A DNA stretch of 64,000 nucleotides, from contig OZ024740.1 of NCBI GenBank assembly GCA_964016885.1, forward strand, positions 374,790,001 through 374,854,000, given 5' to 3'. The position numbers and the translations under genes were made by a program. Source of the DNA: Eledone cirrhosa. Its lineage: Eukaryota. Each line of letters opens with the position of its first letter. Positions within the stretch are counted from its first letter, which is position 1. Positions 3,692 through 44,999 of the stretch are shown piece after piece. The notes below the pieces were generated by a model that was not told the origin of the DNA, ran no database searches, and saw nothing but the letters and a program-made list of their open reading frames with translations.

Positions 3692-3756
3692 ATTTTATCT
3701 GATGAGGACGTACTGTTGAAGTTAGCTCAGTACATTTGAAATATGTATAATAAAAT
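3692..3756 (+). ncRNA. Type I minimal hammerhead ribozyme in an inverted PLE pLTR
   Basis: Stem I ATTTTAT/ATAAAAT, core CTGATGA (3699), stem II GTACTG/CAGTAC, GAAA (3738), short near-palindromic stem III TATGTA, AUA cleavage triplet. Confidence 0.8.
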
Positions 3757-4410
3757 ATACTTGATCACAAGAATGTCTATTTTTGTTAATATTTTGAATT
3801 AATATTAATGTTTTCAGTGATTTCGGTTGGCTTCTGCTTTTGATAATTTTGTATGTTTCAAGCGAAAATTTAATGAAAATGTGTTCACGTGACAGCCGTA
3901 ATTTCATTTATAAACAATCAAATTATGTTTATTAAAAAAAAGCCTTCGTGAGCCCCTTTTTTAAGTAAAAAGAAATTCAAACACTCATATATGAAAACAC
4001 AACCTGTGACACCTCCCGCCCTCACCCCCGTTGTTTGAAGAACTTTGTAACACGAACTGGTGCGAAATTTATTATAATTATTGAACAACCAATCAAATTA
4101 CTTCTCTAAAAACCTGGCATTTCGAGCCACTTTTTCCATATAAAACAAGCAACATTCAGAGACCAACCAGATGTGAGAAAAACCACAGACACTCTATCTC
4201 AACTCTACTTTTAAAAAGCAGAAAAACTGCGAAACCGGTAAAGGAACCAAATAAATATATATATATATTTTTAAATAAGACTCCAGTTGCATTTTCGATT
4301 TCATATTTTGTTCTTTATACTTTCACTCGTGTAGGACACCTCGGTTATTTTTTTTATTTTGTAAAATAAACCTCCCTTTCTAATATATACCCACCACACG
4401 AAGACCGAAA

Positions 4411-33849: not shown

Positions 33850-35890
33850 GGTTTATATCGTGATGACTGTCTTCTTCGTTCCACTAACATTAGCCTATCA
33901 GAAATTGAAAAAATAAAACACGTATTAGAAATTTCCTCAAAGACTATTATAGTCTCACTATTACATTTGAAAACACGAATAAAGTACTTATTTTCCTTAA
34001 TATAACTTTAGACTTATCTACGTGTATCTACCAACCTTACCATAAACCTAACCAAAACTTACATTACATACACTCACAATCCAATCACCCTAGAACTATC
34101 CTTAAAAACCTGGCATATAATATCTCACTCAGAATTTCTAACCTTTCATCTAACCACGATATATTCGATAAAAATGCAACCTTTGATAACGAAGCTTTAG
34201 CTAGAAGCGGCCACAAAATCAAATTAGTCTATATACCTTGTACCAATAATACTACAAACATACAACCCAATATTACCAACAAACACCAAATGAAAAATAC
34301 AAACCTAAATGCCACTCACACTATACCCGAAAATACCAACTTAAAACTTAATTTCTCTACCTCTTCTCACATACAATATAATAACTTTCAAAAAACCTTT
34401 CATCCTAATACTCCAATATATGTTAATAACATTACTAACAACATTCCTAATAATCAGAATAAAACACCTAAATCAGTGAATCTAACTAAACATATGTATA
34501 ATAAATTCACTAATGCTAACTCTCTTAGTAAACATCAGGATACATCATATAAAATAAAAAATCAGCATCGAAACCGTAATAGACGAGTTACTTGGTATAA
34601 TGCTCCATTTAATCTACACATTAAAGAGAATATCCCTATAAAGTTTTTTTTACTATTCTGGAGAAATCCTTCCCGCCAAACCATAAATACCATCAAATTT
34701 TAAATAGATCAACGGTCAAATTTTCCTACTCCACTACCAAAAATATACAACAAAATATAAGTGCCTACAATGCAAATAAATGTAAAACAAACCATGAATA
34801 TACCACCAACACATCAAACTAACCATAATACTAAAATAAACCGCAGCAAACCACCATCTCCTTCAAATACAACAAGTCGAGAAAATTCCACACCTAATTT
34901 GACTAACTCCCCTGATATAATATACACGAATGGTTGTGACTGTAGAAACAAAGCAAATTGCCCATTAAAAGGAAATTGCCTTATTAATAACATAGTATAT
35001 AAATGTAAAATTAGCACTAAAGACTCAACTTATTCATATATAGGAGCTACTTCTAACCAATTTAACGTAAGATTTAATACCCACAAACACAGTTTTAAAA
35101 ATGCCGCATTAGCTAATACAACATCCGTGGCTGAAATAATTAATAATTATAGAAAAATGAATATCGATTATAACCCGACCTGGAGTGTGCTGAAAAGGGC
35201 TAGCCCTTATCAACATAACAGATATGAGTGTAGATTATGTTCCCAGGAACTTTTTGAAATAATGAAATCTAAGGATATCCTATTAAATAAGCGACAAGAA
35301 TTAATTATATCGTGCAATCATAAAATTAGAAGAACTTTCAAATATTATAAGCCTAATTAATATACACTTTTATTTTACAAATTATTATAATTTTTTTTTT
35401 CTTTTTTAAATTTATTTAACCTACAATTAGTATTTTACTAATGAGAACATCATAATTTTATTTCCCTTTTACAGCTATCTTTTCCTAAAATTAATACCTA
35501 TAAGTATACATATAAACTATTTTAATTTCCTGTTATGAATCTAAATTCCTTGTAGTCTATATAAGTTTGTTATTTCTCACTAATACATTTATGCCCCCCA
35601 CAATTTTTTCCTTCGTTTTTAACAAAATTATTTAATAACATCTAACTCTTATTTATCACATCTATATGAATTAATATAAATGTATCCCTATAAGTATACC
35701 TATCAATTAAGTTAATTTAATTTCATTTTATAGATCTAAATTCCTTATGTTTTTAATAAGATTGGTTTTTCTCACTAACACATTTATCCTAAAATGTTAT
35801 TCTCCTTCGATTTTAACATTAGCATTATTATTTAATAACATCAAATTTTCGTGTACCTTTCACCGTCTTGACACCTTTTCATCCCCAAAG
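33850..35890 (+). mobile_element. 5'-truncated PLE (RT end, N-rich linker, GIY-YIG, 3'UTR)
   Basis: YQPYHKPNQNLHYIHSQSNHP, VTWYNAPFN, CDCRNKANCPLKGNCL, SYIGATSNQF, CRLCSQEL, LNKRQEL. Confidence 0.9.
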
Positions 35891-37892: not shown

Positions 37893-38129
37893 TGCTATCC
37901 TTCTCCTCTCCACCTTTATATATATATATGTATATTTATATATATATATGTATATATACATATATATATGTGTATATATGTATATATACATATATATATG
38001 TACATATATGTGCATGTACGTATATATATATATATATACATACTACTGTGCGGCTGTACACATATATGTATATACGTATACATACTTATATGTATATATA
38101 TATATATGTATATATATAGAGATATATAT

Positions 38130-38390
38130 TATTCAAAATATTAATAAATGAAATAAATTCTCATAATCAATATACATATTTTATTATACATATATCAAAG
38201 TTACAGTGGTGTTTAAGTACGTTTTCATCAGACAAAATATAATGTTTTTAATAAGATTGGTACTTCTCACTAACACATTTATCCTAAAATTTTATTCACC
38301 TTCGATTTTAACATTATTTTAGCATTATTCTTTAATAACATCAAATTTTCATGTACCTTTCACCGTCTTGACCTCTGTTCATCCCCAAAG
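38130..38390. mobile_element. Inverted pLTR fragment (decayed HHR) fused to a copy of the PLE 3'UTR at 35750-35890
   Basis: 38040-38241 matches 33235-33460, and 38243-38390 matches 35750-35890. Confidence 0.75.
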
Positions 38391-38593
38391 TATTATTTTC
38401 ATTCAAAGTATTATTTCCATTCAAAACTGAAGTCTGCATTCCTCGACCCCTAAATTAAATTTCTACTACTACTATTCTATCAACCTGAACACTTACTACT
38501 CTTCTATTGGTCAATTCAAAACCTGTTCCCAAACAGACCTATTATATAAAATCTTTTTTGGTGTTTTTCAATAAACAAATATCATTATTTCTG

Positions 38594-39120
38594 AAAACAA
38601 AGAAACAGTTCCTTATATTAAAAAATTCATCATTTTACGATGGTTTCTAGGATATATATCAGTGTGTTGGTATGTATATCATATAGATCTATGTAAAACT
38701 TTTACAAACTATCAGAGGGAATATACATACCTAGACATATATATATATGCTGTCTTCAGAAATAATTGTTTCTACTTTAGGCACAAGTACCAGTAATGCA
38801 GTGGATAATTGCAGCAATTACCCAGTGCATTACCGGTACTTTATTTTATGGACCCCGTAAGGATGAAAGGCAAAGTCCCCCCGAGGTTGACTTTGCCTTT
38901 CATCCTTACGGGTCGATAAAATAAAGTACCAGTAATGCACTGCGTTATTGCTGGCCTTGTGCCTAACATAGAAACAATTATTTCTGAAGACAGCATATAT
39001 ATGTGTAGGTATGTATATTCCCTCTGATAGTTGGTAAAATACCAATACACACACATATATATCCTAGAAACGATCGTAAAATGATGAATTTTTTAATATA
39101 AGGAACTCTTTCTTTGTTTT
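38594..39120. repeat. Fold-back inverted duplication centred in a SINE
   Basis: 38594-38877 is the approximate reverse complement of 38889-39120, and includes non-SINE flanking sequence. Confidence 0.9.
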
Positions 39121-39278
39121 TATTCATTGTTTTTATTAAATTATCTTGACTCTGTTTTCCTGTGATTTTCATCGAAAGAATTTTTGAATACATCTTTTCT
39201 TTTCATGATATTTTGATTACACGGATTGGACACTACCGTATATTTTGGTAGATTTATCTACACACACACACACACACA

Positions 39279-39377
<99 letters not shown>

Positions 39378-39569
39378 ATAATAATAAATTTGAAGACTAA
39401 AATACATATATATATATGTGTGTGTATGTATATACATGTATATACATGTATATATATAGACATATATATATATACATATATATACACATATATATACATG
39501 TATAAATATGTATAATATATATATAAATATATATACATACATACACACATACGCACATACATACACGCT

Positions 39570-39621
<52 letters not shown>

Positions 39622-39855
39622 TAATATATATGAGTAATATATATGATGAAACAGATACCAACATATCTGTATTTATATTGCAAAAGAAAGTTAGCCAGAC
39701 TGAAGAATATTAATTATTTTACCACAGTTCGTCCACATCGATTTAAAATAATAATAATAATAAATCGACAAAAACTAGCTGTGCTGCCAAATGGCTATGA
39801 TGTTTATACATATTTAAATTTCAAAGTCAAACCTGTTCAGTAGATAAGTTTAAAC

Positions 39856-39940
39856 CTCAAAATCCAAACATGTTTCGAGATGGATAAGTGTATAAGTGTA
39901 GGAATATCTTGCCACTGCTCTCCTCAGTAAACATCCAGAG
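39856..39940 (-). ncRNA. Minimal hammerhead ribozyme (HHR-A), forward-arm copy
   Basis: Reverse complement of the motif at 40522-40606. Confidence 0.72.
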
Positions 39941-40065
39941 ACAATTGATAAGCTTCACTTCTAAATAATTTAAAAGACTGTGTGACGCACATGGGTTCAC
40001 AGATTCAGGCTAGTCTCATAACCGTACTGCTAGAAATAACAGTCGTATATATGAGGCGAATTTTA

Positions 40066-40143
40066 GCTCGACGAAGAGCCGTTATATTAAGTGTAAGGAA
40101 TTCTTTTACAATGGAATTAGCTCGAAAGGAAATATTCCTGAGC
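40066..40143 (+). ncRNA. Non-canonical hammerhead-like fold (HHR-B), opposite polarity to HHR-A
   Basis: GCT-CGACGA-A-GAGC...GCTC-GAAA-GGAA(ATA)TTCC-TG-AGC. The three-stem topology is intact, but the core lacks U4 and position 17 is G. Confidence 0.5.
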
Positions 40144-40521
40144 CGTGTATAAAAGTAATATATATGAGTAATATATATGATGAAACAGATACCAACATAT
40201 CTGTATTTATATTGCAAAAGAAAGTTAGCCAGACTGAAGAATATTAATTATTTTACCACAGTTCGTCCACATCGATTTAAAATAATAATAATAATAAATC
40301 GAGAAAAACTAGCTGTGCTGCCAGGAATATTTCCGTTCGAGCTAATTCCATTGTAAAAGAATTCCTTACACTTAATATAACGGCTCTTCGTCGAGCTAAA
40401 ATTCGCCTCATATATACGACTGTTATTTCTAGCAGTACGGTTATGAGACTAGCCTGAATCTGTGAACCCATGTGCGTCACACAGTCTTTTAAATTATTTA
40501 GAAGTGAAGCTTATCAATTGT

Positions 40522-40606
40522 CTCTGGATGTTTACTGAGGAGAGCAGTGGCAAGATATTCCTACACTTATAAACTTATCCATCTCGAAACATGTTTGGAT
40601 TTTGAG
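40522..40606 (+). ncRNA. Minimal hammerhead ribozyme (HHR-A), inverted-arm copy
   Basis: CTGAGGA (40535)-GAG..GTGG.AAG...CTT..CCAT-CTC-GAAA (40586)-CATG-TT. Palindromic stem III ACATGT, GUU triplet, G-U-rich stem I. Confidence 0.75.
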
Positions 40607-42179
40607 GTTTAAACTTATCTACTGAACAGGTTTGACTTTGAAATTTAAATATGTATAAACATCATAGCCATTTGGCAGCGCAGCTAGTTTTTGTCGATTT
40701 ATTATTATTATTATTTTAAATCGATGTAGACGAACTGTGGTAAAATAATTAATATTCTTCAGTCTGGCTAACTTTCTTTTGCAATATAAATACAGATATG
40801 TTGGTATCTGTTTCATCATATATATTACTCATATATATTACTTTTATACACGGCTCAGGAATATTTCCTTTCGAGCTAATTCCATTGTAAAAGAATTCCT
40901 TACACTTAATATATATATATATATATATACACACAAACATTATATACATATATATTTATTTATTTATATGCCCTCACTCATTGCGATAATCTTAATTCTA
41001 CATGTTCACCTCTCATATGATGTTGAGGATGTTTAGTGAATGGCTAAGAAATGCGCTTCGCAATCATTCAGCCCCTAGTTCAGTCTCGCGATGCAACATA
41101 TTTTTTTTTATCATAACACTAGATATCAGTGAAAGTTTTTAGACTGTAACTGTGTGTCACTCGTTGCATGTGCTCTAAATCCTCGTCATCAACACCGAAG
41201 CATGATTGATCAGTCGTATGGTTTTAAATGATTTGTACTAATAATTCATATGGTGAAAAGCATAATAATTACTTCCCCACATTTCCTAAACTAAAGAGGA
41301 TGTATGTCAATGTCAATATTCGGTGTTAAAGCCAAGTCAAATGTATTACTTTTTAGACAATATTTCCGTCAAGACGAATACATTGTACTCATAGCATTTA
41401 CAGCAACTCTCCTCCAGATCCGGAAGATAAACGTGGCTCAGTCACTTCCTGAGCAGATTTAAGTTGAGGCAACTCAAAGACAATTAGTTACTGCGAGCTG
41501 ATGACTAGATAAAACAATGACTAAAGAGAGAAGGAGAGAAGATTGTTGGTGAAACTATGACTAGAAATAGGACTAGGACAGGTTGCCATGGAATATACCC
41601 GGAATGCTTATATATTGGTAAAAAAAAAACAGTATAAACAAACACAAGCTCGTATGTGGGGTTTATGCTGGGATGTGCTTCACGGGGGCAGAACTTGATG
41701 CAAATATGTTTAATGAATTTTATAAATGAATCCTGTGATGGTTATATATGTAGTAGCAATATCAACTCGCTGCGTACGTTATATTCTATCGTATGTCTCA
41801 AGTTTTGCTATATTTGGATTATCATTTCTTTATCATTTAATTACAATTATTAGCAATAAGGGATGAATATAGACTGAAATTAATATGTGTTATGCATTCC
41901 TTCTTTATATTGTCTATGACCACGTGCGTGTGTGTGTGTGTGTAAGGGGGGGGGTATATTAGTTACTGACCACTTTGATTAAAAACCATGCATTGGTCTG
42001 AATTTTTGTATTTCTACCCTGCTATCTTTATTCCTACCATCCCCTTCCTTCTTAAAATAATTCCTGGAATTTAGTCATTTATCTTTATACATCTCACGAA
42101 TAATAATTTTGTAGGACAACTTTAAATTGTGCACAATATCCTTTCTTGGTTGTCCATCGTAAACGATGATGACATCTTC

Positions 42180-42275
42180 TTTATTGTTGTTTCCATCTGC
42201 TGTGGGCACAAAGGTAGCTGTGGAGGCCGATCCTTGACTTGCAGGTCCAGAGACAGTGGGGACAAGGGAAGAGAC
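42180..42275 (-). mobile_element. RTE LINE extreme 3' remnant
   Basis: Minus strand PHCLWTCKSRIGLHSYLCAH, matching the RTE terminal zinc-finger-like motif. Confidence 0.6.
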
Positions 42276-44016
42276 CGGAGTCAGACTGGCAACTCCCAGA
42301 GGTTACCTCCACCTCTCGCCCATCGCCGCAGGGCTTTGCAAGTGCACGCTAAAGAAGAAACCTGTGCGGGAAAGGTTTATAGTGGGAGGGCCAGTGCACA
42401 GTGACAGCCCCACTCACTCGGCCACAGGAGCCAGAATCCGGAGTTACGGAGGATCGTCACGACCAGGGACTTCCTTGGCTGCAGTGGATGGCCACAGCGT
42501 CTGTAGTTCCTTGTCGTTCCCTAGCGCTCCACACCGCTTGCTGTCGCCGCCTTTGTGACCGTTGGGACGATGTTGTCCTCCTCCACTCACTCCCTCGGGT
42601 CCAGTCTTCGCATGCAGGGCAGGCATTCCCTATCTAACTCACCAGAAATTTCAGACCCGTCCGGCTGCCCTCAACCTGGTTCGGCCCGCCAGCCAAGGCG
42701 GTTTTCCGAGGTGTGGCCGCTGTCGCACGCTACAGCTTCTTGGGGCCACAGGTGAGAGCCGAGTGTCAAATGGGACCCAATGCAGGACGAGCTGTCCTGA
42801 AAAGGGCATGGCTAGCCCTCCCTACATATGTAAATGCCCCTCCCTGACACCCCAGGCATATACACCCGCATATACATACACATACGTACATGTGTATATA
42901 CATATTTACGCAATTTTGTATGGCTGTCGAATCTTCTGAGTTCTTCCGCCCTTTGTCAGGTTTTGTTTTTTGTACTGCAGTGTGTCCAAAATCACCCTCC
43001 TCCCCAAGTAAACTTTGTGGGGTTGCTAGTTTAGTCACCGACGACCCAACCATACGACAGGTTGTACTAGTTTACATGTTACCAGTAGCACTCAAGAGTG
43101 ACCTGACACTTATGCATAATATACTCTGTTTATATACCGAGTATATAAACATAACATATCTTCAATTACACTTGATAATGGCAACTTCCAATAACCTCAT
43201 ATTCATTCTAAATAGCGTTATTGATAATTGTCCCAAGTACGTATATGAAACCTTTTACGATATAAACATTTATTGAATGATATTTTTTTTCGTATGGATT
43301 ATAATGTTGCCAAAGTTTAAAGAGAAGTGAAAATATATTCTATTGTATAATTATTATATTACTAAGTACTGATTTTACGTATATTTTATTTCTAAACCTC
43401 ACTATGATGCAAATTAAAATTGATACCGATTTGATTTTCTTTAAAGGAAAGTAGACCAAATATTAGACCTGTTCTATATTTAAAAAAAAACGTCTACATA
43501 TCACTACCGGCATTCCAGGTTATTTGTAGCATTGTCACATATTTGAGAATTAATGGACTCATCATATATGTTTATGTGTCATGAAATAACGTAGATGAAC
43601 TATTATTTGCTTTTGCATTTAATTTTGCATAACCATTTGTCCAATATTACCTTAACAACGACCTGCAAATGATTCATCCATACATTCTTTCTCTCAGTAT
43701 TTTCTATACCGTCTGCAATGATCCTTTCCGACCAAACCCACAGGATTAATCTGTTTAATATTTGTTATCCATTTCCGACTTACGGTTTAACAGTTGCCTA
43801 ATTTTTCGAAATCATTCTTTTGTAGATCTGCATATATCTAGTACTGTTATTCAAGTTGTACATCAAATGCAATGTTCTCGTTATTGCGAGAAGTATGACA
43901 TATAACCTATTTAAATGTCACAACATTCATACAATGTTTTCTAATGTTGGTACAAGGGTAGCAATTGGGGAGGGGGTTCAACACCAGTCCTTTACAGTTT
44001 CATTATTTTTAACATA

Positions 44017-44200
44017 TTGGCAGTATCGGTAGAGGGTCAGACGCCATGCTTTGCAGCAAAGAGTTACGGCCCGTTATGGTCTGAGTTCAAATCCCGCCGA
44101 GGTTAACTTTGCCTTTCATCCCTACGGGGTCGATAAAATAAAGTACCAGTAATACACTGTGATAATTGCAGGCCTTGTGCCAAAAGTAGAAACAATTATT
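44017..44200 (+). mobile_element. tRNA-derived SINE copy
   Basis: TTGGCAGTATCGGTAGAGGG...GAGTTCAAATCCCGCCGAGGTTAACTTTGCCTTTCATCC...AGAAACAATTATT. Confidence 0.92.
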
Positions 44201-44999
44201 TTAACGACGCGAATATTTATACACAACACGGCGTAGACGAGAAAATATATGATAAATTTAATTTATTTGTTAATCAAATATGAAAAACATGTCGTTATTT
44301 TCTTTGTTCCCGAAGAAACAGTGATTGCCTACACATGTTTTACGATATCTGGCTGTTTATTAGAAAAAGAAACTATACTACGAGAAATATGGCAAATCAC
44401 TTTTTACATTAAACGCAAAATAGGGCGTATATGGAATGAAAAATATAACAACGAACCATATATGTTGTACATATCTAATCAAAACTTCATCAGGTTAGTC
44501 TTAATCAACCAGGTGTAACTAAGTGCATTCCATCATTGATCAACCGTGAACAAAATTGACAAATGTAAATATGTGTGCATTGAAAAACAAGACTAGCGAC
44601 TGCATATGAAGTGCCTCTGTTAAATGACTCGACAGGCGTAATGAAGGTATTTGGGAGTTACAGTGAACAATCATTTTAAGCAAATAAAATATATTAAACT
44701 CAACAAATTGATATAAAGTATATCTCATGGAGCTCATTTAACATCAAATTCTTTTTTAGATTATTTGTCGCAACTATCATTTAATATTGTGTATTATTTG
44801 TGCATTCAATTCCTCTGAACAAATTCAAATAAAAAGATTACGATATCAAATTATCCACTCACAAGTGGTACAAATAGTTTGTTATCGAATTATTGTTTTC
44901 CTCTGAGCATAGGAAACGGGTTAAAAAAGTAACTATTATATATTTTGCAAATGCTATTACTGGCACAGTCATTTCCACATGAGCTGTAAATTATACCGC

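Follow-up and report, generated by a model that had tools for sequence, protein, structure and literature searches.

The DNA at positions 39614-40913 of the window (the whole 64,000-nt stretch of Eledone cirrhosa DNA analysed here) is likely to be one insertion of a multi-copy, non-coding hammerhead repeat, a non-LTR retrozyme mobilised by a Penelope-like element (PLE). Membership of the family among retrozyme-type, non-autonomous PLEs can be stated with high confidence. The insertion folds back on itself, and this fold-back is the ordinary head-to-head form of a PLE insertion. Such copies were probably made by two-site target-primed reverse transcription, with a PLE protein acting on one circular or homogeneous multimeric RNA.

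The initial annotation described a 534-nt unit present as 1.33 forward and 1.11 inverted copies within (TA)n, and this anatomy held when both arms were realigned. Positions 39614-39789 recur at 40148-40323 with 1 mismatch in 176, and the inverted arm, 40322-40913, is identical at 588 of 592 positions to the other strand of the circularly extended unit; the same alignment bore out the earlier statement that both arms run across the monomer junction. There is (TA)n on both sides of the array, within which a target-site duplication is unreadable, and, since the unit itself closes with TATA, the left (TA)n boundary is known only to within a few nt. The features are as follows.

39588-39613, no strand: left-flank (TA)n target
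39614-40323, minus strand: arm 1, 1.33 units, ribozyme sense on the minus strand
39614: 3' end of arm 1, at fixed site S1, no tail
39799-39935, minus strand: predicted type I hammerhead of arm 1, predicted cut between 39807 and 39806
40065-40145, minus strand: hairpins 1 and 2 of arm 1, separated by the tail; read as the reverse complement, the 'second hammerhead' of the initial annotation
5' end of arm 1: 18 nt past a hammerhead cut site
40322-40323, no strand: head-to-head (5'-5') junction, 2-nt microhomology (CA)
40322-40913, plus strand: arm 2, 1.11 units, ribozyme sense on the plus strand
40381-40397, plus strand: hairpin 2 (CGGCTC TTCGTC GAGCT), beginning 2 nt past the internal S2 position
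40527-40663, plus strand: predicted type I hammerhead of arm 2
40527-40534/40656-40663, plus strand: stem I of the arm 2 hammerhead, 8 bp
40535-40541 (CTGAGGA) and 40586-40589 (GAAA), plus strand: core of the arm 2 hammerhead
After 40655 (GUA), plus strand: predicted cut of the arm 2 hammerhead
40849-40913, plus strand: tail, 65 nt from S1 to S2, on the outer end of arm 2 only
40851-40877, plus strand: hairpin 1 (CGGCTC...GAGCT, with an inner stem), beginning 3 nt past S1
40913: 3' end of arm 2, at fixed site S2, with tail
40914-40929, no strand: right-flank (TA)n target

This copy has one hammerhead per arm and would therefore release no unit-length RNA, so it is likely a dead end; a read-through transcript of the array would be expected to fold into a hairpin of about 530 bp.

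Each repeat unit is predicted from its sequence to hold a type I hammerhead, in one polarity. The core reported in the initial annotation (CTGAGGA...GAAAC) is present, while the form is the full type I and not the minimal one first described, which was seen because the distant 3' strands had been missed. The subfamily A ribozyme has a stem I of 8 bp (GATGTTTA/TAAACATC), a stem II of 3 bp that carries a long loop, and a stem III of 21 pairs. When constrained to this form the domain folds at -31.1 kcal/mol, compared with -32.1 kcal/mol unconstrained, and thus lies 1.0 kcal/mol above the minimum. An Rfam scan for hammerheads, proposed in the initial annotation for both strands, gave nothing at E<=5 across 38000-42500, the sense ribozyme included, nor did any other ribozyme family score at that threshold in this interval; the sense hammerhead was probably missed because its stem III is long.

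Stem I varies in sequence across subfamilies A to D and keeps its pairing, i.e. it shows covariation: GGTGCTTG/CAAGCACC in subfamily B, GGTACCTG/CAGGTACC or GGTACCTA/TAGGTACC in C, and GATACCCG/CGGGTATC in D. The C3-G8 pair is swapped for U3-A8 in 36 of 38 subfamily C matches; the position 3-8 pair is a known tertiary contact, backed by a rescue mutant in the available text of PMC11167929. The cut triplet is GUA in 118/118 matches of A and GUC in 33/35 of B and 35/38 of C, overlapping loci being counted twice in these figures. Of 9 subfamily D matches, 2 of them spurious, 6 have CAGAAGA as the core, and the subfamily D ribozyme may therefore be inactive. Subfamily D loci (L140, L158 and others; 2604 candidates) combine a perfect stem I with a core that is mostly CAGAAGA, and judging by these sequences the subfamily may have spread without an active ribozyme, which counts against the mechanism proposed below.

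The view that this is a multi-copy retroelement carrying a hammerhead was supported by a search of the 3.0-Gb genome, which returned 165 matches to the 534-nt unit, at up to 100% identity, among the 39 of 1236 candidates that were scored. A 23-nt hammerhead motif common to subfamilies A and F occurs in 330 exact copies (control, 0). Related subfamilies in the same genome have units of about 547 nt (B), 560 nt (C) and 498 nt (D), and of 516-518 nt (F), and the family as a whole consists of dispersed, multi-copy, non-coding tandem units with a GC content of 31-33%. No description of the 534-nt family was found in the main texts of the open literature; it may already be catalogued, for example in repeat libraries such as Repbase.

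Other elements of related appearance were encountered. Family E (L068, 900-2205; 2442 candidates) is a fold-back, non-coding family with a minimal palindromic hammerhead, and its similarity to the present family is limited to a short, weak match in the segment that follows hairpin 2. A non-coding tandem unit of 459 nt in (TA)n, with the motif CTGAAGA...GAAA, lies at L057 6511-7400 and possibly represents an unrelated retrozyme family. At L181 2048-2680 a short palindromic element with GGCTGAGCTCAAG repeats sits beside family E in (TA)n, and its end sequence recurs in L172 and L074. Within the window, a motif resembling a minimal type I hammerhead (CTGATGA...GAAA, with a stem I of 7 bp) at 3692-3757 on the plus strand is similar to motifs in L061 and L062 near GIY-YIG ORFs. 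The window also holds a 527-bp imperfect palindrome (76%) at 38593-39119, with a short hairpin repeat (38854-38912) at its centre; the core of that repeat is found again at 44070-44201, and we presume the palindrome to be the fold-back insertion of a SINE-like element.

The ends of the insertions are the most regular feature of the family. Ninety insertions were mapped (35 A, 28 B, 27 C) after overlapping duplicates had been dropped; three near-identical neighbours were treated as one, and for two compound loci the outer ends were scored. Sixty are head-to-head with ribozyme-sense 3' ends outward, 29 are single-strand and 1 is mixed. These 3' ends fall at two sites, S1 directly 5' of hairpin 1 and S2 directly 5' of hairpin 2, with a spacing of 65 nt in A and of 82-85 nt in B and C, and 134 of the 138 outer ends at S1 or S2 abut (TA)n. 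Both ends lie at S1/S2 in 50 of the 60 fold-backs, the other 10 having one end elsewhere, and these 50 comprise 49 S1+S2, 1 S1+S1 and 0 S2+S2 (p about 5e-14 against a coin flip). Because the 90 mapped loci had been picked as best matches, loci from a pattern search were also taken in order of position; both ends were at S1/S2 in 10/20 and 5/12 of them, and 15/15, read by eye, were S1+S2. Across both samples, 64 of 65 fold-backs with both outer ends at fixed sites use one S1 and one S2. The array at 39614-40913 obeys the same rule, with arm 1 at S1, arm 2 at S2 and a 2-nt overlap between them; at head-to-head junctions throughout the family the overlap is mostly 0-6 nt. Hairpins 1 and 2 are candidate docking signals for the reverse transcriptase. 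Neither hairpin-marked twin starts nor a one-arm-per-site rule was found reported in the main texts of the open literature.

Two-site priming is inferred because the biochemistry of the anole PLE, the traits of PLE insertions and the layout of a coding PLE in this genome agree. According to the available text, the PLE protein of the anole, which is predicted to be dimeric and favours AT-rich DNA, both nicks and extends the two strands of its target, and it begins reverse transcription at two internal sites that lie as far apart as the genomic tail is long (PMC11167929). Inverted, 5'-truncated copies, a one-sided tail and (TA)n targets are among the PLE traits described in the accessible parts of two further sources (10.1101/2021.04.23.441226, PMC3846280). 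The coding PLE (L058, 370-7618) lies in (TA)n and has an unbroken ORF of about 1000 codons, pLTRs in both direct and inverted orientation, a head-to-head layout like that of the family and a 36-nt tail on one end. Counting against the PLE model, the family tail of 65-85 nt is longer than PLE tails, which are given as 30-40 bp in the available text of 10.1101/2021.04.23.441226.

On this model, multi-unit loci would be transcribed, the hammerhead would cut the RNA, and the monomers would be joined into a circle. A PLE protein, probably a dimer, would bind the two paralogous hairpins, and its GIY-YIG nuclease would cut both strands of a (TA)n tract. Each DNA end would then prime reverse transcription on the same RNA, one at S1 and the other at S2, and both cDNAs would run past the ribozyme site for variable distances before their 3' ends joined at a microhomology of a few bases and the second strands were filled in. 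The product would be a head-to-head insertion with a tail on one end. Our confidence in the full two-site mechanism on a circle differs from step to step, from tentative to reasonably good. That a circular ribozyme RNA uses two paralogous hairpins to dock the two subunits of an RT-endonuclease dimer, while both (TA)n ends copy the circle at once, is put forward as a tentative proposal. The broader suggestion of the initial annotation, that an RNA in circular or multimeric form was reverse-transcribed, probably by a PLE enzyme, is supported as likely.

The nature of the template can be read from the units themselves. At 23 polymorphic sites in subfamily A, in pairwise counts that are not independent, discordance is 4/1382 within arms and 4/1394 between arms of an insertion, against 24178/83088 between insertions, i.e. 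about 0.3% compared with 29%. The figures within and between arms are 3.3% and 5.3% in subfamily B, against 31% between insertions, and 7.1% and 1.9% in subfamily C, against 34.5%. The insertion at 39614-40913 is one of two in subfamily A whose arms differ at a family-polymorphic site (one site). Shared haplotypes could also come from gene conversion or from a transcript pool dominated by one source. Among 12 insertions with at least 4 overlapping copies the variants are star-like, with 65 singletons, 6 variants common to some of the units and, relative to the yardstick copy, 90 differences present in every unit. The star-like pattern fits one-event synthesis from one template better than stepwise expansion, and new variants carried by all units of an insertion imply a monomer bottleneck. 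At least one ribozyme cut site is crossed by 115 of 139 arms and two are crossed by 29, so the templates were mostly uncut or re-joined. Arm 5' ends within 3 nt of a cut site number 0, against 0.75 expected. Within the 21 nt after it there are 15, against 5.4 expected, an excess that is significant in subfamily A only and uses a window chosen after inspecting the data; it suggests that some templates were cut and linear, or that the RT stalls there.

The same family and enzyme might instead have used a linear template, an uncut or partly cut multimeric transcript of a homogeneous array, with no circle involved; we consider this unlikely. The enrichment of 5' ends just past the cut site and the homogeneity of the source arrays would both suit such a template, as would the observation that the anole PLE mainly uses uncut RNA in vitro (PMC11167929, as far as its available text goes). 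Copying linear multimers, however, can only shorten arrays, yet arms of the family reach 6.9 units, and the contrast between the 90 sites carried by all units in the 12 multi-unit insertions and the 6 that are partly shared also speaks against it. A monomer circle accounts best for the long arrays, of up to 6.9 units, in which every such variant is fixed.

A second possibility, which we consider very unlikely, is that one cDNA folds back and primes itself to give the second arm, or that this arm comes from an antisense template, and/or that an endonuclease trims the tail after synthesis. Self-priming has been proposed for head-to-head Penelope junctions (PMC3846280) and endonuclease resolution for the PLE tail (10.1101/2021.04.23.441226), both according to the available text. 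The two-arm S1+S2 insertions divide on the first point. Arms are nested in 35 of the 45, as self-priming would have them, and are not nestable in the other 10, which include 39614-40913 and for which fold-back of a single cDNA is thereby excluded. Near-symmetric junctions number 10/45 against about 5 expected (p=0.025), so fold-back may contribute, while in 35/45 the offset exceeds 30 nt. The position of hairpin 2, past the S2 end, means that it is missing from the DNA end that it marks; it would need to act in the RNA, which counts against both self-priming and trimming, as do the two RT start sites measured in vitro (PMC11167929, available text).

The initial annotation also read the locus as an ambisense, viroid-like replicon with ribozymes in both polarities, and this part was not borne out; integration of such a circular RNA into the genome is extremely unlikely. 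In subfamily A a strict descriptor found 1 site, on the ribozyme strand, compared with 0 on the opposite strand and 0 among 40 shuffled sequences; in B and C both strands gave 0, the sense ribozyme being missed there because stems II/III are shorter. A relaxed descriptor recovered the homologous sense site in A, B and C; its matches on the opposite strand have stems II/III of 2-4 bp and non-canonical or mismatched cores, vary by subfamily, and are equally found in 22-29 of 40 shuffles at one mismatch. The second hammerhead-like fold described at 40066-40143 thus lies on a strand that scores like shuffled sequence. As a hammerhead it would have no stem I, its cut position would be occupied by G and its core would carry U3-C4, and GAAA is missing from the B and C copies compared; it is the reverse complement of the two paralogous CGGCTC...GAGCT hairpins with the spacer between them. 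Opposite-strand ribozymes of other or unknown class were covered by the Rfam scan alone. The opposite strand is more stable than its shuffles (z -2.0 to -3.7), which would favour an ambisense RNA but is expected from complementarity, and hammerheads occur on both DNA strands of the locus only because one arm is inverted. No opposite-strand hammerhead is conserved in A, B or C, and every fixed end is the 3' end of one polarity. Folded as a circle, as had been proposed, the unit is branched (11-13 hairpin loops, 52-66% paired) and not a rod, which again counts against the ambisense reading; some viroids are also branched, so this test is the weaker one.

Logan contigs from four runs of one study, compared with 40180-40670, were short fragments (from three of the four runs, the fourth giving none), and 0 bridged the 40322 junction; loose ends at 40378-40379 extend into (TA)n, and subfamily F was reached from one loose end. 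The absence of a bridging contig would suit an assembly chimera, but this, like satellite DNA grown by unequal crossing-over, is scarcely credible given dispersed insertions with common fixed ends but private breakpoints, star-like variants, and arms at 39614-40913 that differ from each other at 4 positions. As a class, the fold-backs are not assembly artefacts, a concern raised in the initial annotation, since they make up 60 of 90 insertions and their breakpoints differ.

The family stands close to several known systems. Among these, animal non-LTR retrozymes consist of type I hammerhead units in tandem that are expressed as circles, with PLEs as the proposed mobilisers (PMC7229834), and the family resembles them in its non-coding tandem type I hammerhead units without an LTR, its low GC (31-33%) and its co-occurrence with PLEs, as far as the available text describes them (Cervera and de la Pena, 2020; PMC7229834). 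Its units are longer than the 150-450 bp at which retrozymes were first described in that text, and fall within the range of 51-972 bp given for retrozymes linked to pLTRs in the accessible part of a later study (Li et al., 2026; 10.64898/2026.07.22.740005). In the same study 1 of 9 predicted frog retrozyme dimers cleaved in vitro and 8 did not. The family differs from animal retrozymes in its very long stem III, its dispersed short arrays in (TA)n, the head-to-head inversion of about two thirds of its insertions, and its two fixed, hairpin-marked ends; no such end features appear in the available descriptions of retrozymes.

With PLE insertions, as available texts portray them (PMC11167929; PMC3846280; 10.1101/2021.04.23.441226), the family shares an inverted 5'-truncated copy, a tail at one end, two internal start sites, an AT-rich or (TA)n target, and a hammerhead upstream of the starts. 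It departs from them in having no ORF, a full rather than minimal hammerhead and a tail of 65-85 nt. Among the 45 GIY-YIG loci examined (of 10596 candidates), no homologous coding-element pLTR was found. These loci, which form six protein clusters at 60% identity, were compared with the unit by BLAST and nhmmer, and none held an autonomous partner with a homologous end; the unit matches at them are separate family insertions or distant relatives. Listing the ORFs around family loci in the hunt for a partner revealed only neighbouring or nested insertions. The arrangement of a downstream CxxC and GIY-YIG in the L058 element presumably places it in the Neptune clade. In the window, two adjacent ORFs of 264 and 199 aa at 33909-35360 (plus strand) resemble the C-terminal part of a broken PLE, with a weak GIY-YIG match (E 0.009) below the cut-off.

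In LINE-1 twin priming, one RNA is copied from primers on the two strands of the target, and the resulting cDNAs meet at microhomology to leave an inversion. The mechanism proposed for the family is alike in joining two cDNAs from one RNA at microhomology to form an inversion, and unlike in that both starts are at fixed, internal positions marked by hairpins, poly(A) is absent, and the arms overlap and exceed the unit length. The Avsunviroidae and other ambisense ribozyme circles are small, non-coding hammerhead units with multimeric read-through. The family shares all of these traits but carries its ribozyme in one polarity only, is genome-encoded and has retrotransposon-type ends.

How inverted and tailed PLE insertions are assembled, and whether PLEs truly mobilise animal retrozymes through circles, are stated to be open questions in the available text of the literature. 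A young family such as this one offers many near-identical natural insertion products, which turn a descriptive oddity into a defined in vitro question: it shows a near-absolute rule of one arm per start, a candidate RNA signal for each start, and one template haplotype per insertion. If the proposed mechanism is true, one step would explain the inverted repeats and one-sided tail of PLEs together with the tandem arrays of retrozymes, and the 534-nt unit would be a minimal template for two-site copying.
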